Assembly (NCBI GenBank): GCA_034670305.1
Contig: JAXMNT010000026.1
Span: forward strand, 25,402-89,401
DNA: 64,000 bases
Direction: 5' to 3'
Origin: Deltaproteobacteria bacterium
GTDB taxonomy: Bacteria > Myxococcota_A > Polyangia > Polyangiales > Houyiibacteriaceae
Under the pieces are notes generated by a model. It was not told where the DNA came from, made no database searches, and saw nothing but the letters and a program-made list of their open reading frames with translations. Both the position numbers and the translations under genes were made by a program. How positions within the stretch are numbered: position 1 is the first letter of the stretch; each line of letters begins with the position of its first letter. Positions 6,494 through 61,774 of this stretch are shown one piece after another.

Positions 6494-7330
6494 ATGACCG
6501 CGCTTCGAGAGCACGCGACTCAGCGCCGCGCCGACCTCCGCTTGGCAGCGGGACTGCTCGCCCTCATTGTGGGGACCGTGTTCGGACTCGTGACGTTGCA
6601 GCGCGCGCTGCTCTTTCCGCGCCCTCGCGTGGCCGTTGCCGCGCCGCCACCGAACACCGAGGACTTCGAAGCGTGGTGGATCGAATCCCCGGAGGGACCG
6701 GTCGAAGCGTGGTTCTTGCGCGGCCGGAACGTCACCGGCCCAAGCCCCGTCGTCCTGTTCACCCACGGCAACGGAGAGCTCATCGACTTCTGGCGGGACG
6801 AGATGAACCCGTGGCTCGACATGGGCGTCAGCGTCGTGCTCGCGGAGTACCGCGGCTACGGACGCAGCGCCGGCAGCCCGAGCGAAGCCCACATCGCAGC
6901 GGATCTTCGGCTGCTGCACGCGAAGATGGTCGCCCACCCCCTCATCGACCCGGCGCGCATCGTCTACCACGGGCGTTCGCTTGGCGGCGGCGCCGTCGGC
7001 ACGCTCCTGCGTTCCCACGCGCCGCGCGCGTTGATTCTCGAGTCCACCTTCACCAGCGTCACCGATCTGGTGGCGGCGATGCGGCTTCCGCGATCGCTGA
7101 TGGTCGACCGCTTCGAGACCCTGCCCGCCCTCGCGGAGTACAACGGCCCGCTGCTCGTCGTGCACGGCGAACACGACCGCGTGATCCCCGTCGCGCATGG
7201 ACGACGCCTCGCGCAAGCCAGGCCCGGATCCGAACTCCTGCTCTACGACTGCGGCCACAACGACCTCCCCCACGACGCCCGCTACTGGCAAACGATGCGC
7301 ACGTTCCTCGAACGCGCGAACGTGCTGTAG
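6494..7330 (+). CDS. Alpha/beta hydrolase (BEM46/S9-like serine hydrolase) with an N-terminal TM anchor
   Basis: It has VVLFTHGNGE, the nucleophile elbow HGRSLGGG, HGEHDRVIP and GHNDL. The start could be 6455 or 6494. Confidence 0.65.
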   Translation: MTALREHATQRRADLRLAAGLLALIVGTVFGLVTLQRALLFPRPRVAVAAPPPNTEDFEAWWIESPEGPVEAWFLRGRNVTGPSPVVLFTHGNGELIDFWRDEMNPWLDMGVSVVLAEYRGYGRSAGSPSEAHIAADLRLLHAKMVAHPLIDPARIVYHGRSLGGGAVGTLLRSHAPRALILESTFTSVTDLVAAMRLPRSLMVDRFETLPALAEYNGPLLVVHGEHDRVIPVAHGRRLAQARPGSELLLYDCGHNDLPHDARYWQTMRTFLERANVL

Positions 7331-7402
7331 CAACGCCGCCAGCTTCGGCTCCATCACACGAAAGCGGAGCGCCCAACGGACGCTCCGCTCAGCTTCGCCA
7401 AG

Positions 7403-7714
7403 CTATCCGCGACTAAGCTTGAACAACATCGCGCAGACGTGGTCCGCCAGGTCGTAGACCTCGTCGCTCGCCTCCACGTACCCCATCACGCCTGCGACCT
7501 GCAGAGCCGCCTTCACTTCGCGGGCCTCGCCAAGAGCTCGAGAAAAGCCGTCCGGGTTCCGCCCCCCGCGCGCGCTCCGCGACTCGGCGATCAAGAGCGG
7601 GACCGCCTGCGCGGCGCGCCGGAGTTGCGACTTGAGACTCGCCTCGCGAATGCGAGGCAGAACCTCGCGAACCAGCGTAGAAAGCAGAAGCAGCGACTTG
7701 TCGAATACCAGCAT
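7403..7714 (-). CDS. Four-helix-bundle protein (23S rRNA intervening-sequence protein family, TIGR02436-like)
   Basis: It has SQLRRAAQAVPLLIAES...FSRALGEAREVKAALQVAGVMGYV, typical of this family. The N-terminus is possibly longer, with a non-ATG start. Confidence 0.5.
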   Translation of the reverse strand: MLVFDKSLLLLSTLVREVLPRIREASLKSQLRRAAQAVPLLIAESRSARGGRNPDGFSRALGEAREVKAALQVAGVMGYVEASDEVYDLADHVCAMLFKLSRG

Positions 7715-7776
7715 GTTGACCTCCCGGTCGTTGTGCGCCGAGCGTGAACTCGCCCGAGGGCGCGCAGCGCCCCCCA

Positions 7777-7867
7777 GCGGTCTGGGCGGTGCCGGGTCAA
7801 GGACGAGCGAAGCGAAGCCAGCGAAGCTGGGGCCGAAGGCCTCCTTTACGCGGTGCCGCCCAGACCG
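7777..7867. other. Hairpin-capable element with a 14-bp inverted repeat (AGCGGTCTGGGCGG ... CCGCCCAGACCGCT), flanking the GCGAAGCGAAGCCAG motif
   Basis: Read directly from the sequence. It is intergenic and upstream of the 8078 gene. Confidence 0.4.
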
Positions 7868-7939
7868 CTACGGTCGGACAACCCACGGGCCAGCCAAACC
7901 CTCCCGAGAAGGGGGCGGAAGCTACGGGGTGCGTCGCTG

Positions 7940-8030
7940 TCGGCATCGGCATCGGCCGGCATCGGCTTCGGTATCGGCTTCGGCTTCGGCGTCGGCTTCG
8001 CCGTCGGCGTCGGCGTCGGCTCGGGAAGTC
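7940..8030. repeat. Intergenic hexanucleotide microsatellite (GGCDTC)n, about 15 units
   Basis: ggcatcggcatcggccggcatcggcttcggtatcggcttcggcttcggcgtc... Confidence 0.9.
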
Positions 8031-8077
8031 TGCTCGAGCACGCAACCGGCGGCCCACGGTTTCGAGGAGGGACCCAT

Positions 8078-8738
8078 GCACTCCCTCTCCCCCTGGGCGA
8101 CCTCGGTCGCCTGTCTTCTTCTCTGGGTGGCCTCCGCGTGTCCTTCGCCGGCCGCCGCTCAGTCCCGCTGGAACACGCCGGTGCTCGAAGGGCACATCGA
8201 GGAGCACGCGCCCCGGCGCGACGAACTCGGCTACTTCCGCGTCCCGCGCCTCGAGATCGCCGCCGACGGGGGCGGGTCGCTCGGCGACGCCGCGCTCGAC
8301 CGGTTCCACGCGGTCGGCACACTCCGCCTGCACGTGCCGCTCGGCGCCGCGGTCGTCGTGGGCGGGGAGGCGCGAAGCGGCGTGCTGTTCTTCCCACGCG
8401 ACCTGTCGGACTTGAACGACGAACTCGAGTTCACCCGCCGCACCGACGTGGCGTTCTTCGCTCGGCTCCGCGCCACGTTCGCACGCACGACGATCTTCGT
8501 CGGCGGCGACTTCGGCTGGTCGCGCGTGGCTCCGGAGGATCAGTCTGCCGGGAGTGCGCGCGATGGTCTCGTCGCCGGACCTCAGGTGGGTGTGGAGGTC
8601 GGCACCTTCGTTCGGACTTCTCTGACGGCCAGCTGGCGCGTCTATCGATACGGCGAAGCCGACCTCGACGGCAGCCGCGGGCACTCGGAGTTCTCGTTCG
8701 GCCTGGGGTTGCAGATCCCGATCTGGAGGGTCCGATGA
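8078..8738 (+). CDS. Secreted protein with a signal peptide, possibly an outer-membrane beta-barrel
   Basis: It has a signal peptide ([21 protein letters not shown]), alternating hydrophobic beta-strand-like segments, and a C-terminal aromatic-rich end. It is translationally coupled (ATGA) to the next gene. Confidence 0.5.
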
Positions 8739-10843: not shown

Positions 10844-11656
10844 ATGCGGGTCGCCTGGGGCACCGACATTCACCTCAACTTCGTCGGCGCCGATGGCGCG
10901 CGCCTCTATGGACAGCAGGTGGCGCGGACCCGGCCGGACGCGTTCATCGTCAGCGGCGACATCGCCGAAGCCACGAACCTCACGCCGTTGCTCCGCACGA
11001 TGGCCGAGGGCGCCCGCCTCCCGTGCGACTTCGTGCTCGGCAACCACGACTTCTACCGGAGCGACATCGACACGGTGCGCGCCGAGATGACCGCGCTCTC
11101 TGCATCCATCGGCTCGTACCTCTCGGTCCAGCCGGCCCGCGAGCTGATGGATGGCGTCGCGATCACGGGCGTCGACGGATGGGGCGATGCACGTCTCGGC
11201 AACCCCGAGGGCACGGACGTGCGCCTGAACGACTTCTTGATGATCCGCGATCTCGCGACGCCGGATTGGAGCGAGCTGCTCGCCCGCTTGCGTCGGCTCG
11301 GAGATCAGGAAGCTGCGCTCGCACAGACCCGGCTCGACGAGGCCTTTCAACTGGCCAAGCACGTGCTCTTCGTGACCCATGTGCCGCCGTTTCGCGCCGC
11401 GTGCTGGCACGACGGCGAGGTCTCGAACGACGCGTGGTTGCCCTTCTTCACCTGCGACGCGGTGGGCAAGGTGTTGCGCCACGCAGCCCGCGAGAATCCC
11501 GACCGGCACATCACGGTGCTCTGTGGGCACACCCACAGCGCAGGCGAAGTCCACGTCGGACCGAACCTGCACGTCTTCACCGGACGCGCCGACTACGGCA
11601 CGCCGGCGTTCGACCTGCTCGAAGTCAGCGCGACCGGCGTCGGCTTCGCCGACTGA
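10844..11656 (+). CDS. Metallophosphoesterase (calcineurin-like phosphoesterase)
   Basis: It has the GTDIH, GDIAE and GNHD metallophosphatase motifs. Confidence 0.7.
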   Translation: MRVAWGTDIHLNFVGADGARLYGQQVARTRPDAFIVSGDIAEATNLTPLLRTMAEGARLPCDFVLGNHDFYRSDIDTVRAEMTALSASIGSYLSVQPARELMDGVAITGVDGWGDARLGNPEGTDVRLNDFLMIRDLATPDWSELLARLRRLGDQEAALAQTRLDEAFQLAKHVLFVTHVPPFRAACWHDGEVSNDAWLPFFTCDAVGKVLRHAARENPDRHITVLCGHTHSAGEVHVGPNLHVFTGRADYGTPAFDLLEVSATGVGFAD

Positions 11657-13184
11657 GTCCGACGCACACCACGCCGAACCACGCCCACGCTGCGCCCTGC
11701 GTACCTCCGGCGGAACAACCACCGACCACGAGGCCGCCCGTCGGGGTCATCGCGGAAGCGTCGCCACCGGTCGGTCCGGCGTCTGCACTCGGGCCGGCGT
11801 CACTGCCCGGTCCCGCGTCTCGCGCACCGGCGTCCACGCCGCACGCGTCGACACCATCGCAGTTCTGGTCGATGCCGTCGCCGCACATGTCCGCTGCGCC
11901 CGGGTAGATGGTCGCGTCGGTGTCGTCGCAGTCCACGCTCGTGTTGTGTCCATCCCCGTCCGCGTCGGCCGGTCCGCCGGGATCGCATTCGCCCGCCGCA
12001 CAGCCCGCGCACGCCTCGCGTTCCACCGCGCCGCCGCTGCAGCGCACCCGCTCGGCGCCCTCGCAGGTCCAGTCCGCGCCGATGTCCGCCGGGCAGCGCC
12101 CCGCCACCGTCGTGATCCGGATCTGGAGCAAGTCGTCCGCGGGACCGCCGCTGTCGGAGAACCACGCGACGCCTTCTTCGACCAGGTTGAAGAACTGCGG
12201 GTAGTCGCCAGGCGCGTCGGGCGCGCGCACGGTGAAGGAGAACCGGCCGACTTCGCCCGGCGGGGTGTTGGCGTCGGGTCCGGTGACCCGGTGACCACCG
12301 AGCCAGTCGCTGCCCTGCATGGGGCTCGTGGCGTCGCGCGGGTTGCTGGTGCCGAGTCGGGTGTTGCTCGTCCAGGTCTCCGATCCGGTGTTGCGCAGAT
12401 CGATGTGCCCGGTGACCACTTCTCCCGGCGCGAGCTCGAACGGTGCGCTCGCGAGCGGGAAGGTCTGGTCGACATACTGTGCGCGGTACGCCGGCGGGCC
12501 GACGAGCTCCTGGTACGACTCGACGAGCGACATGTACGTGGGCGCGTAGACCGTGCCGACGCCGGAGACGTTCATCCGGATGTTGAAGTGCAGGTGGATG
12601 GTGGTGGAGGTGCCGCCGAAGTCGTTGCTCACGAGACCGAGGCGCTGACCGCGCGTGACCCGCTGTCCGCGCGTCACGGCCAAGCGGCGACTGTTCATGT
12701 GCAGGTAGTCGTAGCGGCGTCCGTCGTCGCCGGTCACGTAGACCGAGTAGCTGCCGATGTTGGTGACCGTGCCGGGCGCGCCGGCGACCACCCAGTGCAC
12801 GCTGTCGGTGCACGTCGCGGGGCGGATGTCTTGGCCCTGATGGCCCTGTCCACTCGGGCACAGCGGCATGTCCCAGCTGCGGCTCTCGCAGTAGTTGTCG
12901 TACCAGGGGTAGCTGTAGTTCCGGGTGTCGCACTGGCCGCCGCTCGGACCCATGTAGCCGCCCGGGCCGTAGATCTGCGAGTTCGCGTAGGCCGGCCCGG
13001 CTTCCATCGGAAAGCGCATGCCGGGTGCGTACACTCGGGCGTCCACTCGGCCGGCACCGGCGCGTGGTGCACCGCCACCCGCACTCATCAGGGTGCCAGC
13101 AGGCTCCCATCGGAACTGGGCCTCGGCAGGCGCCGCCAGAGACGCCGCCGCCACCGCCATCACACCGAGCAGCGCGCGGTTCAC
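11625..13184 (-). CDS. M23 (LytM-type) metallopeptidase with an Ig/NBR1-like middle region, a DCDDTD...CDG metal-binding-type motif and a C-terminal MYXO-CTERM
   Basis: The M23 motifs are HQGQD...YLHMNS...GTSTTIHLHF. The C-terminus is [32 protein letters not shown]. It has a signal peptide. The start is probably GTG at 13184. Confidence 0.7.
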   Translation of the reverse strand: MNRALLGVMAVAAASLAAPAEAQFRWEPAGTLMSAGGGAPRAGAGRVDARVYAPGMRFPMEAGPAYANSQIYGPGGYMGPSGGQCDTRNYSYPWYDNYCESRSWDMPLCPSGQGHQGQDIRPATCTDSVHWVVAGAPGTVTNIGSYSVYVTGDDGRRYDYLHMNSRRLAVTRGQRVTRGQRLGLVSNDFGGTSTTIHLHFNIRMNVSGVGTVYAPTYMSLVESYQELVGPPAYRAQYVDQTFPLASAPFELAPGEVVTGHIDLRNTGSETWTSNTRLGTSNPRDATSPMQGSDWLGGHRVTGPDANTPPGEVGRFSFTVRAPDAPGDYPQFFNLVEEGVAWFSDSGGPADDLLQIRITTVAGRCPADIGADWTCEGAERVRCSGGAVEREACAGCAAGECDPGGPADADGDGHNTSVDCDDTDATIYPGAADMCGDGIDQNCDGVDACGVDAGARDAGPGSDAGPSADAGPTGGDASAMTPTGGLVVGGCSAGGTQGAAWAWFGVVCVGLSRRSRRRSR

Positions 13185-13708
13185 TGGCGCACCTCGGTCA
13201 GCTCGTCCGCCAGATCCAGCGCCCAAAACGGGTCCGTGCAACGACGGTCGGTGAACGCGTCGTAGCACTCGACCTCGAGCGAGAACGCGACCCCGTCTTC
13301 GGTCCACGTGACGGCGCGGATCTGTTCGTTGAGGGTGGTGCGCGCCGGTTGCCCGCGGACTTCTTCGAACGCAGGCACGATGCGCTCGAGTTCCTGCGGC
13401 GAGAGCTCAGCGTGCACGTTGTCGGTCGCGTGGAGCGACACGGTCAGGCCGTCTTCGTGCCAGCTGATGGCGTACCAGCGCGGACCGCTCGTGACGAACG
13501 ACTCGGCCGCGAACCGCTCCGGCAGCACGAGCACCCGCGCCATCGGCGCGCCTTCGAGCGCGGTCCGAGACTGAGAGGACAGCCCGAGCACCTCGGGCGC
13601 GGGCGTCACGGCCCCGAGCGGCTGAGAGACCGAACCCTCCGGGGCTCCCTCACACGCCACCGCCGTCAGCAGCAACGCACTCCACACACACCATTTCCAG
13701 CAAACCAT
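13181..13708 (-). CDS. Lipoprotein of unknown function, co-transcribed with the M23 peptidase
   Basis: It has a lipobox (LLTAVAC). Its stop overlaps the start of the M23 peptidase gene. Confidence 0.5.
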   Translation of the reverse strand: MVCWKWCVWSALLLTAVACEGAPEGSVSQPLGAVTPAPEVLGLSSQSRTALEGAPMARVLVLPERFAAESFVTSGPRWYAISWHEDGLTVSLHATDNVHAELSPQELERIVPAFEEVRGQPARTTLNEQIRAVTWTEDGVAFSLEVECYDAFTDRRCTDPFWALDLADELTEVRQ

Positions 13709-50939: not shown

Positions 50940-52355
50940 TCACAACATGGTGCGGTGTTCGGTCATCGACATGGGAGCAGAACCCACCCCGGCACGTCGT
51001 TGCAAGCGCCCTTCGATCACGGCGCCTTCGGCGGCGACCCCTTCGAAGCCGGCGGCGCGGTACCCACGGAGCCGGTACGTCACTTCCAGCGACTCCCCTT
51101 CGGGGAACGACAGCTCGAGCGGGGTGACGCCGAGTCGCTCGTCGCCGCGCAGGACCGTCGCGCCTGGAGGGTCGGACACGAAACGAACGACCTGCGGGAC
51201 CGGTGTCAACGCACCCTCCGGCAGCCGGTCGGTCGTTGGCGCCGCCTGCATCTCGGTCGGCATCTCGGTGGGCTGCACTTTGGTCGGCGGTTCGGTTTCG
51301 GGCCCGGTTTCCAAGCGCGTGGTCGGCTCGACCGCATCGTCCCCCATCTGCGAGAGGCCGAGGCCGACGAGGAGCAGCAAGACCGCACCGGCCAGACCGA
51401 TCCAGGGCAGGCGGGAGGGCCCCGCAACCGGTTCGGGCGTGGCGACAGCAGCCGGCTCGGGCAGAGACGCCCGTGCGGACGGCGGCACACTCATGAGCCG
51501 GCCAGGATCCGCGTCGATGTCGGGCGCGGCAGCCGAGAGTGCTGCGGACAACGCCGCCATGCTCTGTGGCCGGTCGGCGGGGTCCTTGGCGAGGGCTTTC
51601 AAGATCGCCGCTTCGACGGCGGCCGGCATCGACACGTACTCGCTCGGCGGTTTGGGCTCCTCGTTCCCGTGTTTCCAGAGCAACTGGAAGTAGTTGCCGC
51701 CTTCGAAGGGCGGCCGGGCGGTCAACATCTCGTAGAGCATGACGCCGAGTGCGTAGATGTCGGCGCGGTGGTCGACGTCGGCTTCGCCGCGCGCCTGTTC
51801 CGGCGACATGTACAGCGGCGTGCCGACGAGCTGCCCGGTGCGCGTCATGCGGACCTGTTCGGCTTCGGCGGTCTTCACCTTGCTGATCCCGAAGTCGAGG
51901 ATCTTCACGAAGTCCGAGTCCCGTTTGCGGCAGATGAAGACGTTCTCGGGTTTCAGATCCCGGTGCACGATCCCGCCGTCGTGGGCAGCCTGCAGCGCCT
52001 CGCACATCTGGTGGGCGATCGGCAGCGCCCGGGACAGCGCCATGGGACCCGGTTCGATCACGTCCGCGAGGCTCTTGCCCTCGAGCATCTCCATGACGAG
52101 GAACACACGGCCGTCGTCGGTCGCGTCGAAGCTCACCACGTCTACGATGTTGTCGTGGTCGATGCTGCTGGCCGCCCGCGCTTCCTGTTTGAGGCGGTCG
52201 ATCGCGCTCTTGTTGGCGGCGACTTTGTCCGAGAGCACCTTCACCGCGAAGGGTTTGTCGAGGTGGATGTGGACCGCCATGTAGACGGTGCCCATGCCGC
52301 CTTCCCCGATCCGGCTGTCGACCTTGTACAGGCCGCTGAGCACCCGGCCGATCAT
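50940..52355 (-). CDS. Ser/Thr protein kinase with a TM segment and a C-terminal PEGA domain
   Basis: It has the full Hanks motifs (GEGGMGTVY, AVKVL, HRDLKPEN, DFGISK, GTPLYMSPE), then a TM helix, then PEGA (VRFVSDPPGATV). The N-terminus may extend upstream through a non-ATG start. Confidence 0.75.
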   Translation of the reverse strand: MIGRVLSGLYKVDSRIGEGGMGTVYMAVHIHLDKPFAVKVLSDKVAANKSAIDRLKQEARAASSIDHDNIVDVVSFDATDDGRVFLVMEMLEGKSLADVIEPGPMALSRALPIAHQMCEALQAAHDGGIVHRDLKPENVFICRKRDSDFVKILDFGISKVKTAEAEQVRMTRTGQLVGTPLYMSPEQARGEADVDHRADIYALGVMLYEMLTARPPFEGGNYFQLLWKHGNEEPKPPSEYVSMPAAVEAAILKALAKDPADRPQSMAALSAALSAAAPDIDADPGRLMSVPPSARASLPEPAAVATPEPVAGPSRLPWIGLAGAVLLLLVGLGLSQMGDDAVEPTTRLETGPETEPPTKVQPTEMPTEMQAAPTTDRLPEGALTPVPQVVRFVSDPPGATVLRGDERLGVTPLELSFPEGESLEVTYRLRGYRAAGFEGVAAEGAVIEGRLQRRAGVGSAPMSMTEHRTML

Positions 52356-52747
52356 CGGATCGGGCCCCTCGTCCGCGTCGTCGTCGTCGTAGACGATCGT
52401 CGGGCCCGTCTTGCCGGGGGGTGCCTCGTGAGGGCCGGAGAGGTCGTCGTCGGAGCTGGCGCCAACCGTCTTGGCGAGCGGATCGGTGCTGCTGAGCGCA
52501 GGCGTCTCCGCCCCGCCTGATTGAGTGTCTTTCGTCGGGTCGTCGACCGCCGGCTCTCGCTCCGCCTCCAGGGGATCCCTCCGTCGGCGCAGCCTACCAC
52601 GGGGTTTGCAGCCACGCCGCGGTTCAGGACTCGGACGTTTGTCGAGAGATGCGGACCAGTTGTCGGGGCCTTGCCCCTGCAGAAGGACGCCAGAGCAACT
52701 GGTCCAACGTCGCGCGGGTGGACCACGGGGTGTAGAAAGCAACCTGC

Positions 52748-53431
52748 GTGCCCCGCCTCTCCGACCAAGCCGAAGCCCTCCTCGACGCGGTCGGCGAAGA
52801 TGGCCAGTCCACCACACTCAAGCCGCGCCGCGGACACGTCCGATTGCTCCCCGGCAACCTCGGCAACGCCTTGTGGACCTCGCGCCCCTGGCTCCCCTAC
52901 GTCTGGTTCGCCCCCGTCGTCTCAGCGTGCCTCGAAGTCGCACCCCCAGCCGCCGAAGTCGGGGTGACCGTGCCAATCCCGGCCATGCTCGCCATCCCCG
53001 CCCTGTGGCTGAGCGGCGCCCTCGCCTGGATGTTGCTCGAGTACCTCATGCACCGCTTCTTCTTCCACCTCCGTGGAGACGGCCGACTCGTGCGCGGTTT
53101 CCGCTTCCTCGTCCACGAACACCACCACGCCCACCCCTGGGACGAACGCCGCATCGCCGCGACTTGGTGGCAGATGTCGCTCGCCATGCTCTTGCTCTTC
53201 GGCATCGAACGCGCGTTGGCGCCCGTCCTGTGGCCCCACGTCTTTCTCGGCAGCCTGGTCGCCTACCTCCTCTACGAAGCGATCCACCACCGCATCCACC
53301 ACGACCAAGAAGGCGGCCGGTTGCTGCGGGCCATCCGCGCCCACCACCTGAGGCACCACCACGGGCCAGACGGTGCGAAGCGCGGCTACGGGATCAGCAG
53401 CCCCGTCTTCGACTGGCTCTTCCGAACATGA
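52748..53431 (+). CDS. Fatty acid hydroxylase superfamily membrane protein (four His boxes)
   Basis: The His boxes are HRFFFH, HEHHHAHP, HHRIHHD and HHLRHHH. Confidence 0.6.
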   Translation: MPRLSDQAEALLDAVGEDGQSTTLKPRRGHVRLLPGNLGNALWTSRPWLPYVWFAPVVSACLEVAPPAAEVGVTVPIPAMLAIPALWLSGALAWMLLEYLMHRFFFHLRGDGRLVRGFRFLVHEHHHAHPWDERRIAATWWQMSLAMLLLFGIERALAPVLWPHVFLGSLVAYLLYEAIHHRIHHDQEGGRLLRAIRAHHLRHHHGPDGAKRGYGISSPVFDWLFRT

Positions 53432-53507
53432 AACTCGGCGCGTCGCGCTTTGGTGACCGGCCGACGGCCCAAGCATCGGTACCAGGCCGCTCCCTGCGCG
53501 GCGGCCT

Positions 53508-53539
53508 CACTTAACATGACAGCGCGGTCATGCTAAGTG
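53508..53539. promoter_or_regulatory. AT-rich palindrome CACTTAACATGAC-N6-GTCATGCTAAGTG upstream of the ACP gene
   Basis: A 13-bp arm with one mismatch, in an otherwise about 70% GC region, 120 bp upstream of the ACP start. Confidence 0.4.
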
Positions 53540-53658
53540 CCGCCTCCTCCGGAGGCTGCAATGAAACGTACGACCACAGACGTGCTCAGCGGTGGGCTTG
53601 GTGCCGCTGATTCTCTGAAACCAGTCCGGCCGACCACCCGTGCGGCGAGGAGCCACGC

Positions 53659-53919
53659 ATGAACGACGAACTCGAAGCCGAGCTGTGTGTCCTGATCGTC
53701 AAAGCGCTGCTCTTGGAGGACGTCACCCCGTCCGACATCGACCCCGCCGCCCCGCTCTTCGGCGAGGGTCTTGGTCTCGACAGCATCGACGCACTGGAGC
53801 TCGCGCTGGCGATCGAAAAGAAGTACGGGGTGCGCCTCAAGTCGACCGATGAATCCAGGGTGCACTTCACGTCGGTCCGGACTCTGGCTGCGCATGTGGC
53901 GGCGGAGCGGCCCGCATGA
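53659..53919 (+). CDS. Acyl carrier protein
   Basis: It has the phosphopantetheine attachment motif LGLDSIDALEL and is 86 aa. Confidence 0.8.
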   Translation: MNDELEAELCVLIVKALLLEDVTPSDIDPAAPLFGEGLGLDSIDALELALAIEKKYGVRLKSTDESRVHFTSVRTLAAHVAAERPA

Positions 53920-54989
53920 GCGAGCGCGAGTTGACCGCGATCGAAGCGAAGTTCGAGGCGCAGAAGATTGCCTTCGGCCCGTTCTACTTTCAGGCGGCGG
54001 TCGCGATCAAAGAGCTCGGACTGTTGGACGCGCTGGTGCGCAAACGTGGGCCCATGACGCCGGCTGCCTTGGCAGAGGCGTGTTCGGTCTCGCTCTACGC
54101 GGCCAAGACGTTGTGCGAGGCGGGCTTCTGCGCCGGGCTGCTGACGCGCGATGCCGAATCCAATGCGTACGAGATCACGAAGGTGGGTCGCTACATTCGC
54201 GCGGATCGCATGACCGAGGTCAACTTCAACTTCACCCAAGAAGTTTGTTATGCGGGGCTCGCGCGCCTCACCGAATCGTTCCGAACCGGCCGGCCCGAAG
54301 GACTCAAGGTGTTCGGCGACTGGCCGACCGTCTACGAAGGGCTCTCCGAGCTGCCGGATGGGGTCAAGAAGGCCTGGTTCGAGTTCGACCAGTTCTACTC
54401 CGACGACGCATTCATCTGCGCGCTCGATCTCGTGTTTGCGGGTTCGCCGCGGCACGTGCTCGACATCGGTGGCAACACCGGCAAGTGGGCGGAGGCCTGT
54501 TGCAAGCGCGACCCCGACGTCGAAGTCACGTTGGTGGACCTGCCGGGCCAGCTCCAAGTCGCCGAGGCGCGGCTCGGTGCACAACCGTTCGCGGAGCGCG
54601 TTCGCTACGCGGAGGTCGACTTGCTGGACGACGCCCAGAGCCTGCCGACCGGCGCCGACGTGGTGTGGATGAGTCAGTTCCTCGACTGCTTCGGAGACGA
54701 CGAGATTCGCTCCATTTTGACGCGGGTCCACCAGGCCATCGACGACGACGCCACCGTCTACATTCTCGAGCCCTTCTGGGACAACCAAGAGTTCGAAGCG
54801 GGCCGGTTCTGCCTCGTCGGCACGTCGCTCTACTTCAGCTGCATCGCGAACGGCAACAGCAAGATGCTCGGCATCGACGAGATGACCGAACACGGCCGCG
54901 CGACCGGTTTCGAGCTCGTCAGCGCGCACCCGCTTCTCGGCGACTCCTACCACACGCTGCTCAAGCTGAAGAAACGCGCCGCCGCATAG
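53916..54989 (+). CDS. Class I SAM-dependent O-methyltransferase (family-2-like with an N-terminal dimerisation/wHTH domain)
   Basis: It has the SAM motif VLDIGGNTGKWA followed by an acidic residue (LVDLPGQ). It overlaps the ACP gene through ATGA. Confidence 0.7.
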   Translation: MSERELTAIEAKFEAQKIAFGPFYFQAAVAIKELGLLDALVRKRGPMTPAALAEACSVSLYAAKTLCEAGFCAGLLTRDAESNAYEITKVGRYIRADRMTEVNFNFTQEVCYAGLARLTESFRTGRPEGLKVFGDWPTVYEGLSELPDGVKKAWFEFDQFYSDDAFICALDLVFAGSPRHVLDIGGNTGKWAEACCKRDPDVEVTLVDLPGQLQVAEARLGAQPFAERVRYAEVDLLDDAQSLPTGADVVWMSQFLDCFGDDEIRSILTRVHQAIDDDATVYILEPFWDNQEFEAGRFCLVGTSLYFSCIANGNSKMLGIDEMTEHGRATGFELVSAHPLLGDSYHTLLKLKKRAAA

Positions 54990-55034
54990 AGCGGCGCGCG
55001 TGGGGTCGGGTCGCCGTGGCCTGCGCTCAGCTCC

Positions 55035-56243
55035 TCATCCCACCAGCGCGTCGAGCTTCGCTTCGATCGTCTTCGCGCTCATCACGCCTTTGTAGACGTA
55101 GAGCGCCGCGCTCTTGGACTCGGCGAGCAGCTTCTCGCTGACTCGGAGCCGGGTCGATGCGGCGAAGAGCATCGGGACCGCGAGCCCTTTCTCCGCGAGT
55201 TCGACGCGTTTGAAAACCGCGTCTCGGCTCCAGTATCCCATGACTTCCAAGTACACAGTCGACTTGCCCTTGCGGAAGACCAGGTCGGGCACGCACTCGC
55301 CGACGCCGGGCAACGAGACCACCGCTTCGGCCGGCTCGCACGCCCACTTGCTCGTGCCCTTTTCGTGGCGGGCGGCCATCTTGGCGCGAAGCTTCTCGAC
55401 TTCGTCGGGCAACGCGACCGGCGCGCCCTCCCCGTCCTTCTCGCGTCCGCCATCGGCCCGGAACCGGAGCCTCGTGCGCTGTTTGCCCCAGCGGATCTTC
55501 GCATCGAGCGACCACCGGTCGCACGCGCGGATCGCGGGCAAGACGAGCGCGAGCTGCAGCCCGTACTTCGTGACGGACTGCAGCAAGCTGAACGGTCCGT
55601 CGATCGTGATGCGGTAGCCCTTGGCTTCGGGGAGCGGCTCGATGCGGTAGAGCAGCCGCCGGAACTTCATGGTGCGGAAGAGCGCGCGGTAGCCGGCGGC
55701 GTCTTGGCTCTCGACCTCGACCGTCACAGACTCCGCCCGCAGCAGCACCGCTTGCACCTGCGAACGTTCCCAGTGCACCGCGACCTCCGCACCGCTGATG
55801 TCGTCGAACGCGAGCAGACGGTGGGCGCTCTTGAGGTCCGCGAAGAGCAGCCGCTCCACCTCCTCGGCGGTGACCGAGTGGCTCGAAGCGATCTCGGCCA
55901 ACAGCGCATCGCGGTCGAACGCGTCGCTGCGGCGCGCGTCGGCCGCGCGCGTGAAGACCTCTTGCCGGAGCGCGACGGGATCGAGCTTCGTCTGCACTTC
56001 GAAGTCGCAGCGGTCGAGCACCAACTTCCGCAGGCCATCGGCGAGTTTGACGTCGCGGTTGTCCACCTTCACGTGGCCCATCGCTTCGAGCACTTCGCTG
56101 CGGCTCTCGCCCACCGAGGCCCGGGCGATGGTCACGTACCGCGCCGCGATCTCCGCTGCCCGGCTGCGGATCTTCGTGTCCATCTTGCGGAGTTTGAGTT
56201 CCCCGTCCCGCTTGGTGGCCAGCACGTGGTCACTTGTAAGCAA
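55035..56243 (-). CDS. Bax1-like (DUF790) nuclease partner of XPB
   Basis: It is about 400 aa, lies directly 3' of the XPB-like helicase, and has a C-terminal restriction-endonuclease-like segment (VPDLVFRKGKSTVYLEVMGYW). The start is uncertain (TTG at 56243, GTG at 56225 or ATG at 56183). Confidence 0.5.
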   Translation of the reverse strand: MLTSDHVLATKRDGELKLRKMDTKIRSRAAEIAARYVTIARASVGESRSEVLEAMGHVKVDNRDVKLADGLRKLVLDRCDFEVQTKLDPVALRQEVFTRAADARRSDAFDRDALLAEIASSHSVTAEEVERLLFADLKSAHRLLAFDDISGAEVAVHWERSQVQAVLLRAESVTVEVESQDAAGYRALFRTMKFRRLLYRIEPLPEAKGYRITIDGPFSLLQSVTKYGLQLALVLPAIRACDRWSLDAKIRWGKQRTRLRFRADGGREKDGEGAPVALPDEVEKLRAKMAARHEKGTSKWACEPAEAVVSLPGVGECVPDLVFRKGKSTVYLEVMGYWSRDAVFKRVELAEKGLAVPMLFAASTRLRVSEKLLAESKSAALYVYKGVMSAKTIEAKLDALVG

Positions 56244-57591
56244 CGTGGTCTCTCCGTCGTTCGCTGGTGTAGGCCTCGCCGGTCTGGGCGGTGATGATCT
56301 CGTAGAGGGTGGCGCGTTTGTCGCCCACCTTGCGCAGGATGCGGCCGAGCCGCTGCACGTGTTCCCGCACGCTGCCGCTGCCACTGACAACGATCGCCAC
56401 GTTCGCGTCCGGCACGTCGACGCCTTCGTTGAGCACCCGGCTCGTGACCACCGCGCGGTACCGGCCCGCCGCCAGGCCCTCGAGCACTTCGCTGCGTTCG
56501 CTGATCTTCGTCTGGTGGGTGATGGCCGGGATCAAGAACCGGCGACTGATCTCGTAGCAGGTGGCGTTGTCCGACGTGAACACGATCGCGCGGTCGTCGC
56601 AGTGTTCCTCGAGCAGGTTGCCGACGTAGTCGAGCTTGGCTGGCGCCGCGAACGCGAGCTGTTTCTGTTTGCGGTAGCCCGCCATCGCGCGGCGGCCTTC
56701 GTCGCTTCGGGCGCTGCGCTGGATGAACTCGCTCCAGCCCTTCTTCGAGCCCATGCGGATGCCTTGGCTGCGCAGAAACGCCAGATAGATCGCACGCGCC
56801 TCTTCGTACTCCTGGCGCTCTTCAGGAGAGAACTCCACCTGGATGTGGATGGTCTCGTAGTCGGCGAGGTAGTCGCCGCTCATCGCGACGATCTCTTGCC
56901 GGTAGCAGATGGGCCCGATGAGCGCGTCGATGACTTCTTCGCGGCCATCCTCGCGTTCCGGAGTCGCGGTCAACCCGAGCCGGTACGGCGCCAGACAACA
57001 GCGGGCCGCGAGCGCGTAGCTCTCGCCGGGCAGGTGGTGGCACTCGTCGAACACCACGATGCCGAACCGGTTGCCGAGGTGCTCCATGTGGATGTACGCA
57101 GAGTCGTAGGTGGTGACGGTCAGATCCTCGACGGTGTGGTCGCCGCCGCCGACGATGCCCACCGGTCGGTCGAACGCGGTGCGCAAGTTGTCGTGCCACT
57201 GCCGCACCAGGTCGAGCGTGGGCGCCACGACCAGCGTGCTCCGCCGAAGCGCATCGATCGCCATCATCGCCACGTGGCTCTTGCCGGCGCCGGTCGGGAG
57301 CACCACGAGCCCGCGGCCCTGCGCGCCCCGCCAGGCCTTCAGCGCTTCGTCCTGGTACGGGCGCGGCGTTCGGCGCACGCGGAGTCCCTCGTCCAGGGTG
57401 GTGTAGGCGCGCGCTTCGTCCTCGTAGGGCTCTTTGCGCTGGTGCAAGCGCAGCAGGATCGGCGCGTAGTCGATCGCCGCGGCGCGGTGGCACGCAGCCC
57501 GCGGATCCCAGACACACTCGGGCGGCGTGCGCGGGTCGCCACGCTCGAGACCGTGCAGCTCCAGCGTGCCCTGGACGAACCTGAGCGTGAT
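56230..57591 (-). CDS. XPB/Rad25-like SF2 DNA helicase (bacterial short form)
   Basis: It has motif I (LPTGAGKS), motif II (DECHH), motif III (TATPER) and motif VI (QRLGRILR), plus an N-terminal about 80-aa domain. Confidence 0.7.
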   Translation of the reverse strand: MTLRFVQGTLELHGLERGDPRTPPECVWDPRAACHRAAAIDYAPILLRLHQRKEPYEDEARAYTTLDEGLRVRRTPRPYQDEALKAWRGAQGRGLVVLPTGAGKSHVAMMAIDALRRSTLVVAPTLDLVRQWHDNLRTAFDRPVGIVGGGDHTVEDLTVTTYDSAYIHMEHLGNRFGIVVFDECHHLPGESYALAARCCLAPYRLGLTATPEREDGREEVIDALIGPICYRQEIVAMSGDYLADYETIHIQVEFSPEERQEYEEARAIYLAFLRSQGIRMGSKKGWSEFIQRSARSDEGRRAMAGYRKQKQLAFAAPAKLDYVGNLLEEHCDDRAIVFTSDNATCYEISRRFLIPAITHQTKISERSEVLEGLAAGRYRAVVTSRVLNEGVDVPDANVAIVVSGSGSVREHVQRLGRILRKVGDKRATLYEIITAQTGEAYTSERRRDHVAYK

Positions 57592-57711
57592 CATCGAAAC
57601 GGTCGTAGCAGAAGTCGAGGCCCGCACGCGAACCTCCTCGTCCTGTCCGCCCGAGGGTTGCGGATTGCGGATGGCTCCGCGCCGAGTCCTCGCGTACCGT
57701 GGCTGGCAGCC

Positions 57712-58591
57712 GATGAGTGAATGGATCGAGGACGAAGTCGTCCGCACCCACCCACCCCCGACGGCCAAGATCCGACTGGACGGCGACGGGGTCGAGTACT
57801 GGCCCAACGTGGCGACGCGGGTCGTCGCGCCGTGGAACACCATCTTCGGAGTCGCGCTGGTCCCGCTCGAATCGCCGACCCGCGCCTACATCTTGGTGCC
57901 GCGCAAACCACCGGCGCCCCCCTGGCTCCTGGTCACCCCGTCGGACCTGCCCAAAGACCTCGCCCACGAAGGACTCGCAGGTCTGGGCAAGCGGGTCCGC
58001 GAACGGCTCGGCCAGCGGGGTTACCGAGACGCGGGTCCGACCCGGCCGTTGCTCGACAGCGACACCCTCATGTCCAAGGTGCTCGATCGCGCCGAGGTGC
58101 CCGGCGCGCTCGAGGTCCCCGTCGCGGCTGGCCCTGGGGGCTGGTGGCGGCGCTCCCTCGACTTCTTCGCCGCCGGCTCGGCCGGCGGCCTCGCGGGCCT
58201 CTACGCGGGAGGGCTCACCGGGAGCATGGTGGTCGCCGCCGGCATCGCGCTCGGCGGTGCGGTGCTCGGCGCATCGGTCCCCGTCGTGCTGGCCAGCAAC
58301 TGGCGCTCTGTCCGAAGACGCCGCACCCGGCCACGGGTCTTGGTGCTCGCACCCGATGGCTGCGTGGTCGGCCTTCCCTCGGGCCCAAGGGCGTTCAGCT
58401 GGCCCGAGGTGGCGCGCTTCGAAGCCGGCGCCCAGCCGACGCCGCAGAAGCCACTCGGCCCCGACCGACCGTGTTTGGACGTCTACCTGCAGGGCGGCGA
58501 GTGCGCGGGCCGCATCGACGGAGCCTGGTTCGCCGAACCGCTGGAGTTGATCGTGGCGGTCGCCGAGGCGTACCGGGTCCGGCACCAGTAG
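57712..58591 (+). CDS. Hypothetical membrane protein, divergent from the helicase
   Basis: Central Gly/Ala-rich TM helices are present. No family is recognised. Confidence 0.4.
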
Positions 58592-58725: not shown

Positions 58726-60018
58726 CTAGGCGCCGCCGATGCCGATGCCCACGCACATCGAGTCGCGGCAGAACTCCCGCCGTCCGCACACGGTGCCGCA
58801 GTCCCCGCAGTTCTCGGGATCGTTGCGGGTGTCGACGCAGGTGTCGCCGCAGCTCGTGAGCGGCGGGCGGCAGAAGATGTCACCCGCCCGGCATTCGCCG
58901 CGGGTGCAGGTCTCGAGGTCGGCACACACGACGCCACAGTCACCACAGTTGTTCTCGTCCGTGTTGGTGTCCACGCACGAGCCGTCGCAGTCGGTCAGAC
59001 GGCCGCCGCAGTCGGCGATGCACTCGCCGAGGCGACACGACTCACCGTCGGCGCACGCCATGTCGCAACCGCCGCAGTGCGCGGGGTCGGTGCGGGGATC
59101 GACGCACATGTCGCCGCAGGAGATGCCGCCGTCGCCACAGTCGAGCGTGCATGTACCGCCGGTGCAGACTTCGCCCGCCCCGCAGGCCATGCCGCAGCCA
59201 CCGCAGTGAAGCGGGTTGGTGTTGGTGTTCGTGCAGACGCCGCGGCAGTCGACGCCGCCGCGCGGACACGTGCAGGCGCCGTCGAGGCAACGGGCGCCGT
59301 CCGCGCAGACCACATCGCATCCGCCGCAGTGATCGGGATCGCCGCTGGTGTCGACGCAGGAGCCGCCGCAGTCGGTGTCGCCGTCTGCGCACATCGCCGC
59401 GCAGTCGCCACCGTCACAGACTTCGCCCGCGTCGCATGCGTTGCCGCAGCGACCACAGTTCATCGGGTCTTCGTCCAGCACCACGCAGGCATCCGAACAC
59501 TCGACCGCATCGCCGACGCACGCACACGCGCTGTCGCGGCAGACCGAATCGGCCGCGCATGCGTTGCCGCAGCGACCGCAGTTCTCGTCGTCGCTGGCGA
59601 GCAGGGTGCAGACCCCATCGCAGTCCGTCGTGCCGCGGGGACACGCGTCCGAACAGCTGCCAAACGCACAGACCTGCTCCGAGCCGCACGCAATGTCGCA
59701 GCCGCCGCAGTGCGCGACGTCGGAGCGGAAGTCCACGCACACGCCGTCGCAGTCCGCTTCTTCGGCGCCGCACTCGACCATCATGCCGGCGTCTTCGCCG
59801 CCGCCCGCGTCTTCGCCGCCGCCGGTGTCTTCGCCGCCACCGCCGTCGTCGGAGTCACCGGCGTCTTCGCCGCCGCCGCCGGTGTCGACCCGCAATGCGT
59901 CCACGCCGCCCGCGTCGCCGTCCGGGGGGGTGTCGTCGTCGCCGCACCCCGTGAACGCCAAGCCCAACATCAAAACCGCCGCAAGCCCCACCCGGGAGCC
60001 GCCATTAATCCAACCCAT
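58726..60018 (-). CDS. Lipoprotein made of about 11 Myxococcus-type cysteine-rich repeats (DCDGxCVDxxxDxxHCGxCxxxCxxGxxCxxGxC)
   Basis: It has a lipobox (LAFTGC), an acidic G/D linker, then regular 6-Cys repeats. Confidence 0.7.
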   Translation of the reverse strand: MGWINGGSRVGLAAVLMLGLAFTGCGDDDTPPDGDAGGVDALRVDTGGGGEDAGDSDDGGGGEDTGGGEDAGGGEDAGMMVECGAEEADCDGVCVDFRSDVAHCGGCDIACGSEQVCAFGSCSDACPRGTTDCDGVCTLLASDDENCGRCGNACAADSVCRDSACACVGDAVECSDACVVLDEDPMNCGRCGNACDAGEVCDGGDCAAMCADGDTDCGGSCVDTSGDPDHCGGCDVVCADGARCLDGACTCPRGGVDCRGVCTNTNTNPLHCGGCGMACGAGEVCTGGTCTLDCGDGGISCGDMCVDPRTDPAHCGGCDMACADGESCRLGECIADCGGRLTDCDGSCVDTNTDENNCGDCGVVCADLETCTRGECRAGDIFCRPPLTSCGDTCVDTRNDPENCGDCGTVCGRREFCRDSMCVGIGIGGA

Positions 60019-60158: not shown

Positions 60159-60932
60159 ATGTTCGGCATCGGTTTCGGAGAGATGATGATTGTCGCGGTC
60201 GTGCTGCTCATCGCAGTGGGCCCGGACAAGATGCCGAAGCTGATGAAGGCGGTCGGCAAGGGCCTGCGCCAGGTGCGCAGCGCGTCCAACGAGCTGCGCA
60301 AACAGTCCGGCATCGACGAGCTGATGCGGGAGGATCCGGTCGGTCTCAAGGAGCTGCAGCGGGATCTCGCCCGCAAGCCTGGCCCGCGCCGGGCGGAGAA
60401 GCTCTCCGCCGACGATCTGGAGCGGGAGCAACCCGCCGAAGGCGTGGACCTCGCAACCGCGCGCCGCCAAGCCGAGGAGTTGCGGCTCCAGGAGGAGATC
60501 GCGCAGGCCGAGCAAGCGGCCCTGGAAGACGGCGACGGCGAGCCATCGGACGAGGCAGCGCCGGAACCCGTGGCTCATGTGCCCGTACCCCATGTGCCGG
60601 TGGGCCGCGCTCCGGTTCCCCCGGCTGAGCCGAAGATCGAACACACCCGGATCGCGCTGCCGGGCCTCGAGCCGATGGCCAAGTCGGGGCCCGCGTCGGT
60701 GCCGCCGCCCTCCCCGTCGGTGCCCCCGCGTTCCCCGTCGGCCGCGGCGCCGTCGCCGCCTTCGCCCTCGGTGCCGCCGCCCTCGCCATCGGTGCCGCCG
60801 CCCTCCCCGTCGGTCGCGCCACCGCCGCCCGCCGCTGCGCGCAAGCGTCGAGACGACGCGACGATGGAGCTCCAGACCGAGGACGTGGAGTACTTCGCGC
60901 CACCGAAGCTGCCGCCGGAGCCGCCCAAGTGA
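60159..60932 (+). CDS. tatB: Twin-arginine translocase TatA/TatB-family protein with a long Pro-rich tail (TatB-like)
   Basis: MFGIGFGEMMIVAVVLLIAVGPDKMPKL matches the TatA/B N-terminus. Confidence 0.75.
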   Translation: MFGIGFGEMMIVAVVLLIAVGPDKMPKLMKAVGKGLRQVRSASNELRKQSGIDELMREDPVGLKELQRDLARKPGPRRAEKLSADDLEREQPAEGVDLATARRQAEELRLQEEIAQAEQAALEDGDGEPSDEAAPEPVAHVPVPHVPVGRAPVPPAEPKIEHTRIALPGLEPMAKSGPASVPPPSPSVPPRSPSAAAPSPPSPSVPPPSPSVPPPSPSVAPPPPAAARKRRDDATMELQTEDVEYFAPPKLPPEPPK

Positions 60933-61774
60933 CCGTGAAACCAGCGGCGCTCCCTTCGGGCGACGGCGACCCCGCGAACCCGGAAGACGACGTGGAGATG
61001 GGGTTCTTCGAGCACCTCGCCGAACTCCGCACGCGTTTGGTGCGCTCGGTCTATGGCGTGGTGCCCTGCATCGCCGTGGCGTGGCTCTTCAAGGAGTACC
61101 TGCTCGAGTGGATCCTCGATCCCCTCGTCGCCGCGTACGCCGCCCTCGGCATCGAGCCGGAGATTCACTTCAAGAACCTCGTCGACCCGTTCTTGGCCTA
61201 CTTCAAGATCTCCATCGTCACCGGGTTGCTCGCGGCGTCGCCGTGGATCTTCTACCAGCTCTGGGGGTTCCTCGCGCCGGGCCTCTACCGCAAAGAGAAG
61301 CTGCTCGCGATCCCGTTCGTGCTCGTCTCCACGATCTGTTTCGTAGGCGGCGGCCTCTTTGGCTACTTCATCGTGTTCCCGATGGGGTTCGAGACGTTCC
61401 TCAGCTACGCGGGCGAGTTGCCGTCGCAGAACATCCGCATGCAGCCGACGATCATGATCGACGAGTACCTGACGTTCTCCACGCGGCTCTTGCTCGCGTT
61501 CGGGCTCGTCTTCGAAGTGCCCGTCGTCGTCACCTTCATCTCGGCGATCGGCCTCGTCACTTGGCGCGGGCTACTGAAGTTCGCCCGCTGGTGGATCCTG
61601 GTCGCGAGCTTCCTCGCCGCGTTCCTCACCCCGCCGGATGTCGCTTCCCAGCTCATCATGCTGGTGCCGCTCGTGGTGCTCTACTTCATGTCCATCGGCA
61701 TCGCGTTCCTGATCGACAAGCGCCGTGAGAAGAAGCGCGGCAAAGACCCCGACGACGGCAAGTTCGAGCGCTGA
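60929..61774 (+). CDS. tatC: Twin-arginine translocase subunit TatC
   Basis: It has FFEHLAELRTRL at the start and six TM segments. It overlaps tatB through ATGA. Confidence 0.85.
   Translation: MTVKPAALPSGDGDPANPEDDVEMGFFEHLAELRTRLVRSVYGVVPCIAVAWLFKEYLLEWILDPLVAAYAALGIEPEIHFKNLVDPFLAYFKISIVTGLLAASPWIFYQLWGFLAPGLYRKEKLLAIPFVLVSTICFVGGGLFGYFIVFPMGFETFLSYAGELPSQNIRMQPTIMIDEYLTFSTRLLLAFGLVFEVPVVVTFISAIGLVTWRGLLKFARWWILVASFLAAFLTPPDVASQLIMLVPLVVLYFMSIGIAFLIDKRREKKRGKDPDDGKFER

Follow-up and report, generated by a model that had tools for sequence, protein, structure and literature searches.

An archaeal-type xpb-bax1 helicase-nuclease operon on the chromosome of Polyangia-type Myxococcota

We describe a two-gene operon, xpb-bax1, on the reverse strand of a 64,000-nucleotide stretch of contig JAXMNT010000026.1 (the window), taken from a genome assembled as Deltaproteobacteria bacterium (GCA_034670305.1). 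The first gene encodes a helicase of the archaeal short form of XPB and the second encodes Bax1, a nuclease of the DUF790 family known as the partner of XPB in archaea. The catalytic and ATPase residues of the family are conserved in both proteins, the Bax1 fold is recovered by structure prediction, the two genes overlap, their context is chromosomal, and the same pair is widely distributed among Polyangia-type relatives. In our view this is very probably a genuine archaeal-type operon whose products help, as an accessory to the usual bacterial repair, to process damaged or abnormal DNA structures. That the two proteins form a complex, which enzymatic activities it has and what it does in the cell, we infer by analogy with the archaeal proteins.

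The helicase-nuclease pair

The helicase reading frame is closed by a TGA codon at 56232-56230 and can be opened by an ATG at 57594-57592. A preliminary, sequence-only reading had given essentially these coordinates; its end point of 57591 falls in the second codon (Ile). The protein used as query comprised 453 residues from 57591, and residue numbers returned by the search tools are therefore protein numbers minus 1. An alternative in-frame start, the GTG at 57627, lies five bases after the sequence GAGGAGG and gives a product of 465 amino acids, which is the gene call in one public assembly. The coding frames of both genes are clear, with third-position GC of 0.85-0.88 in a window of 69% GC.

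Pfam models XPB_DRD (56 bits), ResIII (101.7 bits) and ERCC3_RAD25_C (59.7 bits), together with DEAD and Helicase_C, all matched the helicase above their gathering scores. The DRD match (PF18458, cut-off 26 bits, E = 3.7e-15) covered residues 3-60 and model positions 1-57 of 57. Motifs I, II, III and VI of superfamily 2 (SF2) were present as Walker A PTGAGKS, DECHH, LTAT and QRLGRILR. In a sequence search of the PDB, four solved archaeal XPB proteins aligned to the helicase along their full length with E<=1e-102. The best was Archaeoglobus fulgidus XPB (AfXPB; 2FWR/6P66_A, E = 8e-107, query 17-448), with 43% identity over 429 columns and 4 gap positions, and Sulfurisphaera tokodaii XPBII matched over nearly its complete length (E ~1e-102). 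Eukaryotic TFIIH XPB scored ~1e-24 and the best non-XPB helicase 2.9e-12. These results bear out the assignment, made from the letters alone, of an XPB helicase with SF2 motifs and a DECH box, and group the protein with XPB rather than with Res or SWI2/SNF2 helicases.

The RED motif of archaeal XPB was also found (window ATPEREDGRE aligned to AfXPB ATFEREDGRH), and the segment between the two RecA lobes (query 221-322) aligned to that of AfXPB without gaps, as would be expected of a thumb (ThM). The predicted domain set is accordingly the one described for archaeal XPB: DRD, HD1 with RED, thumb and HD2. NCBIfam model NF045503, which describes the long actinobacterial form, reached 208.3 bits against a cut-off of 610, and its best stretch covered only profile positions 184-391 of 548. 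Actinobacterial XPB proteins (Mycobacterium tuberculosis Rv0861c, Kineococcus) share the SF2 XPB core and the RED motif but differ in having a eukaryote-like N-domain of 120-130 residues and in lacking the thumb; as of 2012, a Bax1 partner was not known for them (PMC3353954). The window helicase carries the archaeal DRD instead, and its domain content identifies it as archaeal short-form XPB (DRD plus thumb), not the actinobacterial or mycobacterial form. The earlier comparison with a bacterial short-form XPB was thus correct as to the short form and has to be given up as far as it implied the actinobacterial type.

Conservation was assessed in the best 80 of at least 515 species-level genomes that contain a relative (one genome per species), and all locus counts given here rest on this set. 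Among 75 XPB orthologues, the Walker A Lys, D-E-x-H-H and Q-R-x-G-R-x-x-R were invariant, and so were the key residues of motifs I, II, III and VI. The RED motif (tool numbering 213-215) kept its Arg in 74/75 and its Asp in 73/75. Its middle residue, which is Glu in the window, was mostly Ala (36), Thr (15) or Gln (9), unlike AfXPB, so that in the Polyangia-type clade the motif appears to be effectively R-x-D.

The downstream product was identified as Bax1 by its match to PF05626 (DUF790), which reached 270.4 bits against a cut-off of 28.8 (E = 2.8e-80) and ran over residues 1-394 of the protein and positions 1-384 of the 387-position model. Sequence searches recovered all solved Bax1 structures: Pyrococcus furiosus 8GY8, A. 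fulgidus 6P66_B and S. tokodaii 6P4F_B, 6P4W_B and 6P4O_B. Two NCBIfam "endonuclease Bax1" models matched at E = 2.5e-33 and 3.8e-28 but stayed below their equivalog cut-offs (NF053694 ARCFU 115.5 bits and NF053695 SULTO 98.4 bits, both against 500). Judged by these scores, the protein is a family-level relative and the equivalog of neither archaeal subfamily.

The fold was modelled with AlphaFold2 using 16 homologues as input, giving a mean predicted local distance difference test score (pLDDT) of 88.9 and a predicted template-modelling score of 0.77. When the model was compared with the PDB by Foldseek, the top eight matches were Bax1 chains only (E 1e-24 to 5e-20, probability 1.00) and the next match had E = 3e-3. 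The model is predicted to contain the N-terminal, Cas2-like and nuclease domains of Bax1. Template-modelling (TM) scores against the Bax1 chains were ~0.5, with root-mean-square deviations of 8-9 A, values that we attribute to a differing arrangement of domains in the predicted structure.

A profile alignment with 6p66_B paired D320 with D305 of A. fulgidus Bax1 (AfBax1) and E333 with E318. In AfBax1, E275, D305 and E318 form a VRR-Nuc-like active site, and with the D305A substitution the complex cuts junctions hardly at all (PMC7293015). D320, E333, G336 and W338 were invariant among 77 Bax1 orthologues, and position 281 was acidic (Asp or Glu) in 76 of the 77, which makes E281 the most likely counterpart of AfBax1 E275, and hence the first catalytic acid, as judged from the alignments. 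The sequence-only reading had proposed a protein of about 400 amino acids with a C-terminal PD-(D/E)xK-like core and had named it Bax1; profile, predicted fold and catalytic residues all agree with that proposal.

A further residue, D136, aligned to AfBax1 D133 and was invariant among the 77 orthologues. D133 contributes to binding of XPB (PMC7293015).

The solved archaeal pairs (A. fulgidus 6P66; S. tokodaii 6P4F/6P4O/6P4W; P. furiosus 8GY8) have the same gene order, xpb followed by bax1, and their Bax1 proteins share with ours the overall fold and the nuclease motif PD(L/F)...E(V/I)xG(Y/F)W. There are differences as well. Window Bax1 shares only 18-23% identity with its solved archaeal counterparts, has no equivalent of the additional C-terminal domain seen in AfBax1 and S. 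tokodaii Bax1 (402 against 468-480 amino acids), and comes from a mesophilic high-GC bacterium, unlike archaeal XPB-Bax1.

Operon architecture and distribution

The end of xpb overlaps the start of bax1 by 14 nucleotides, and the same 14-nucleotide overlap was found, between intact orthologous genes, in 66 of 77 related loci; the pair lies well outside what chance would produce. In 77 of 80 loci the gene immediately before bax1 was xpb, in keeping with the early description of bax1 as an immediately downstream, overlapping gene. At the overlap, the Bax1 start codon in related loci was TTG, ATG or GTG in about equal shares; since the position is kept whichever codon is used, the TTG start of window Bax1 is supported. 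The overlap suggests that translation of the two genes is coupled. Among the orthologues, XPB was the more conserved partner (median identity 64%, against 48% for Bax1).

A few loci were arranged differently. In L046 (XPB 10508-9114, Bax1 7001-8188), bax1 comes first and is followed after about 1 kb by an inverted xpb. XPB was not detected in two of the 80 loci: one is cut by a contig end, and the other, L061 (Bax1 1158-2324), has none in the 1.1 kb upstream.

Upstream of xpb we noted TGCTACGAC, which resembles an extended -10 element. Its TGnTA motif occurred at a fixed offset in 28 of 76 upstream regions, the window included (also L001, L003, L004, L007-L014, L017 and others); elsewhere in the 200 nucleotides upstream, TGnTA occurred about once per 10-nucleotide bin. 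This distribution suggests that TGCTACGAC is the extended -10 promoter element of a leaderless mRNA that would start at or next to ATG 57594, and that leaderless xpb-bax1 transcripts may be made in Polyangia. Because the position of TGCTACGAC fits a leaderless start, we favour ATG 57594 over GTG 57627. The leaderless start conflicts with the 465-residue call, whose GTG stands behind a Shine-Dalgarno-like sequence. A simple sigma-70 scan reported no canonical promoter.

Beyond the 3' end of bax1 there is a GC-rich hairpin with a folding energy of -21.5 kcal/mol (z = -2.4 against shuffled sequences). A scan for consensus terminators missed this hairpin and reported no convincing terminator. The hairpin may be an intrinsic, perhaps bidirectional, terminator that is shared with the convergent O-methyltransferase gene ending at 54989.

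We next consider how widely the pair is distributed. A search of 5.8 billion proteins with Bax1 gave 2782 matches at E<=1e-5; the exact sequence occurs only in a 7.9-kb Logan metagenome contig and one NCBI contig, and its nearest other relative shares 64% identity. The window is placed in Polyangia by its nearest relatives. Named matches were "DUF790 family protein" entries from Myxococcota, Sandaracinus, Sandaracinaceae, Polyangiaceae, Haliangium and Pendulispora. An exhaustive HMMER scan of 1.84 billion cluster representatives gave 1924 clusters at E<=1e-3, 403 of them at E<=1e-30. At least 515 species-level genomes carry a Bax1 relative, and the best 80 of these were nearly all metagenome-assembled genomes of Polyangia-type Myxococcota, with one labelled Vicinamibacterales and one Planctomycetota. 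The distribution in Myxococcota that the sequence-only reading had left to be measured is described for these best 80 genomes, in which the xpb-bax1 pair is a stable and widespread chromosomal feature of one bacterial class, with conserved operon geometry.

Among 72,556 plasmid records searched by tblastn, 42 matched Bax1, and 40 of the 42 were non-mobilizable. Plasmid homologues were mostly on large replicons of Deinococcus (12 records) and of haloarchaea, several with an adjacent DEAD/DEAH helicase gene. Bax1 was not found by tblastn in 50,697 phage records.

Related pairs have been recorded in other bacteria. DUF790 was predicted to be a PD-(D/E)xK nuclease in 2005, when it was found beside COG1061 helicases in Archaea and Cyanobacteria (PMC1189080), and a 2012 survey listed bacterial DUF790 in Cyanobacteria, Deinococci and Rubrobacter, co-occurring with ResIII helicases (PMC3424549). 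In RefSeq, the two proteins of the Deinococcus pair are labelled "DUF790 family protein" and "DEAD/DEAH box helicase family protein", and the former label is given to Myxococcota proteins as well. These DUF790 and DEAD/DEAH pairs (Deinococcus megaplasmids, Cyanobacteria, Rubrobacter; COG3372-COG1061) have the same two-gene architecture as the one described here. Myxococcota Bax1 is ~27% identical to the Deinococcus proteins, and its gene is chromosomal, whereas theirs are on secondary replicons. In the literature searched, we found no paper on an XPB-Bax1 pair in myxobacteria.

Proposed activity and competing explanations

Biochemistry and structures of the archaeal complexes (PMC7293015, PMC7672443) suggest how the pair could work. 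By analogy with these solved and assayed complexes, XPB and Bax1 would form a 1:1 helicase-nuclease machine, in which XPB would act as a DNA-dependent ATPase and 3'->5' translocase that opens a DNA junction and holds it. The N-terminal domain of Bax1 would bind XPB, its Cas2-like domain would be placed on the fork, and its C-terminal PD-(D/E)xK/VRR-Nuc-like site (putatively E281, D320 and E333) would nick one arm at the junction. In the cell, such a machine would give accessory handling of bubbles, forks and bulky lesions beside the usual bacterial repair, rather than immunity.

Several observations weigh against this interpretation. Deletion of xpb or bax1 in archaea gives no or marginal sensitivity to damage (PMC4471258, PMC7690668), and a repair role is for that reason not established for the family. 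Five LexA/SOS-box patterns (Myxococcus, E. coli, Gram-positive and deltaproteobacterial types, and TTAG-N-CTAA) had no match in 76 orthologue upstream regions and so gave no sign of damage induction, although the LexA motif of Polyangia may differ from these. E281 is put forward as first catalytic acid on the basis of conservation, with alignments to hidden Markov models ambiguous by 1-2 positions. Finally, a second, N-terminal nuclease site has been proposed for euryarchaeal Bax1 (A. fulgidus F119, Y131, D133, E135, Y155 and N156; PMC7293015), and in the Polyangia clade 75 of 77 sequences have Lys or Arg in place of its E135.

At the same site, the N156 position is Glu or Asp in the clade, and the two aromatic positions are kept (Bax1 residues 134-138 and 158-159). 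Given these replacements of E135 and N156, the region is, in this clade, probably just the surface that binds XPB and no site of nuclease activity. The conserved D136 fits this, XPB binding being the other role reported for the corresponding Asp.

A different main task, the clearing of stalled replication forks, R-loops or transcription bubbles rather than lesion excision, is possible, but we think it unlikely. It would agree with the weak or absent ultraviolet (UV) phenotype of archaeal mutants (PMC4471258, PMC7690668). The gene neighbourhoods add weak signals: a DinB-like gene within ~2 kb in five loci and a gyrB-like gene downstream in five. Such recurrent neighbours are few and perhaps reflect lineage synteny, and by sequence this task is inseparable from the repair role.

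We regard it as highly improbable that the pair is an anti-phage or anti-plasmid module, in which, on the pattern of helicase-nuclease restriction systems, the PD-(D/E)xK nuclease would cut invading DNA along which an XPB-like motor would translocate. The helicase core does match PADLOC models of PbeA (best E = 1.7e-51) and the phosphorothioation restriction enzyme model TIGR04095 (E = 2e-36), and these matches indicate that XPB-like motors serve in defence systems. In addition, an early analysis left a "selfish character" open for COG3372 (PMC1189080), and archaeal deletions with little repair phenotype (PMC4471258) would suit a role in defence. However, the PbeA match was confined to model positions 237-635 of 672. 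The N-terminal ~236 positions of the model, which belongs to restriction helicases of the PbeA/DndFGH type, are absent here, and neither an adjacent Pbe or Dnd partner nor a DNA methyltransferase was found. Bax1 itself matched none of the PADLOC-DB v2 models and is part of no PADLOC system; XPB gave only core matches (PbeA, mREase_IV, DpdF, Cas3) and two neighbouring proteins gave none.

The genomic context, which is no defence island, also speaks against immunity. No defence, integrase or transposase gene was present among the window open reading frames (ORFs) scanned, no neighbour recurs across 78 loci, local synteny is kept among the 12 nearest loci, and in the literature searched we found no paper linking XPB-Bax1 to anti-phage defence. 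With no PADLOC or phage match for Bax1, few plasmid records and a stable chromosomal context, the evidence argues against an immunity module. The sequence-only reading had offered two roles, an accessory module resembling nucleotide excision repair or possibly an anti-phage one. The former is plausible, while unproven in archaea too, and the latter finds no support in these searches. A type III restriction-modification (Res/Mod) system was rejected as well, the only nearby methyltransferase being the convergent O-methyltransferase, a small-molecule enzyme encoded beside an acyl carrier protein.

ResIII is a generic N-terminal helicase lobe that XPB proteins carry too. We give practically no credence to the view that a generic Res-type or other SF2 helicase stands next to an unrelated PD-(D/E)xK protein and resembles XPB-Bax1 superficially: ResIII (PF04851) is indeed the top-scoring Pfam domain of the helicase and the NCBIfam models of both Bax1 and XPB stay below their equivalog cut-offs, but this view is refuted by the XPB-specific DRD and ERCC3_RAD25_C domains, by the almost gapless alignments to archaeal XPB, and by a DUF790 match over the whole protein whose significant fold matches are Bax1 only.

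Genomic surroundings and biological significance

The positions of the pair, of its signals and of the flanking genes are collected in Table 1.

Table 1. Positions in the window of the xpb-bax1 operon, its associated signals and the neighbouring genes.
Feature	Position	Strand	Remark
Bax1 (DUF790) structure-specific endonuclease gene	55035..56243	-	402 amino acids, TTG start; PF05626 and fold matches
XPB helicase gene, archaeal short form	56230..57594	-	454 amino acids from ATG; Pfam and PDB matches
14-nucleotide overlap of XPB stop and Bax1 start	56230..56243	-	read from sequence
TGCTACGAC, extended -10-like element	57602..57610	-	last base 7 nucleotides before ATG 57594
GC-rich hairpin followed by UUUCUUC	54967..55001	-	starts 34 nucleotides after Bax1 stop; overlaps O-methyltransferase stop codon
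Ser/Thr kinase	50940-52817	-	
Fatty-acid hydroxylase-like protein	52748-53431	+	
Acyl carrier protein, 86 amino acids	53659-53919	+	
O-methyltransferase with dimerisation domain (PF00891, PF21212)	53916-54989	+	convergent with bax1
292-amino-acid protein, no family	57713-58591	+	divergent from xpb
Cys-rich Stig1-repeat protein, 470 amino acids	58726-60138	-	
TatB and TatC	60159-61774	+	

We clustered 956 flanking ORFs from 78 loci and found no neighbour family in more than nine loci. The commonest families, each in 8-9 of the 78 loci, were histidine-phosphatase-like proteins, Ser/Thr kinases and the 292-residue protein. As no other neighbour recurs across the loci, the functional unit appears to be the two genes alone. 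A Pol IV/DinB-like gene was identified by eye ~2 kb upstream of xpb in five of the 78 loci (e.g. L039 2171-3415), and a gyrB-like gene, also by eye, just downstream of bax1 in five (e.g. L014 7158-9665). Their counts are too few to part functional linkage from lineage synteny.

The divergent gene encodes a protein of 292 residues without a match in Pfam, NCBIfam or PADLOC. It had been called an uncharacterised membrane protein starting at 57712; the first word holds, the reading frame runs from 57713, and the membrane label has as its sole basis a Gly/Ala-rich hydrophobic central segment, read by eye. In a tblastn search of the best 80 of at least 515 loci, the protein was found beside xpb in the 12 closest loci only, with 40-59% identity, and in L011 and L014 the homologue lies more than 1 kb from xpb. 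It was rejected as a third component of the module, given its restriction to the 12 closest relatives and its separation from xpb in two of them. Synteny in these 12 nearest loci points to vertical descent in that subclade.

The same-strand cluster at 52748-54989 (hydroxylase-like protein, acyl carrier protein and O-methyltransferase) could be a cassette for tailoring lipids or small molecules, and has no tie to bax1 in other loci. On the other side of the operon, seven stretches of the Cys-rich protein match Pfam Stig1 (plant stigma-specific STIG1-like; E = 1.2e-36), and an ORF of high third-position GC on the strand opposite to its gene, 58730-59209, is probably spurious. Proteins of the Cu-binding_MopE family are encoded at 3-2222 (+) and 11625-13406 (-), one with an RCC1-like beta-propeller and the other with Peptidase_M23 and an Ig-like domain. 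Elsewhere the window is taken up by everyday metabolic, signalling and other chromosomal genes, whose products include a dehydrogenase, hydrolases, a molybdopterin oxidoreductase, amylases, a Band 7 protein and an amidohydrolase.

The GC content of the window is host-like, without a compositional break. No integrase, transposase, restriction or toxin gene was found with Pfam among most large ORFs of the window outside 37.4-44 kb, the part beyond 61.8 kb and a few ORFs that had no match. The window has no tRNA. No Rfam family was matched between 50 and 64 kb, and short repeats in 54.8-57.9 kb were no more than chance would give. The context of xpb-bax1 is chromosomal and non-mobile. No UvrABC gene turned up within the 64 kb, and the coexistence with UvrABC-type repair supposed in the sequence-only reading was not checked.

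The family, the pairing of its two proteins and their presence in bacteria are already on record, and the operon does not amount to a novel type of system; it is of modest interest for its breadth and stability within one bacterial class. Prokaryotic XPB is well described structurally, and its cellular function is still called elusive (2026 review PMC13024598; PMC7690668, PMC4471258). Outside archaea, as the Polyangia operon indicates, selection has kept the C-terminal nuclease site and the Asp that contacts XPB but not the proposed N-terminal nuclease site. The operon also offers mesophilic hosts, some of them culturable, for the genetics of XPB-Bax1.

A more far-reaching idea, which we put forward as a distinctly unlikely one, is that Polyangia have kept, by vertical descent, an archaeal- or eukaryote-style open-and-nick excision machine parallel to UvrABC, which might handle lesions or structures that UvrABC treats poorly; less likely still, the two genes could be a chromosomal immunity module of a kind not yet described. 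The Polyangia, several cultured genera of which apparently have the operon, could reveal the role of XPB-Bax1 in vivo.

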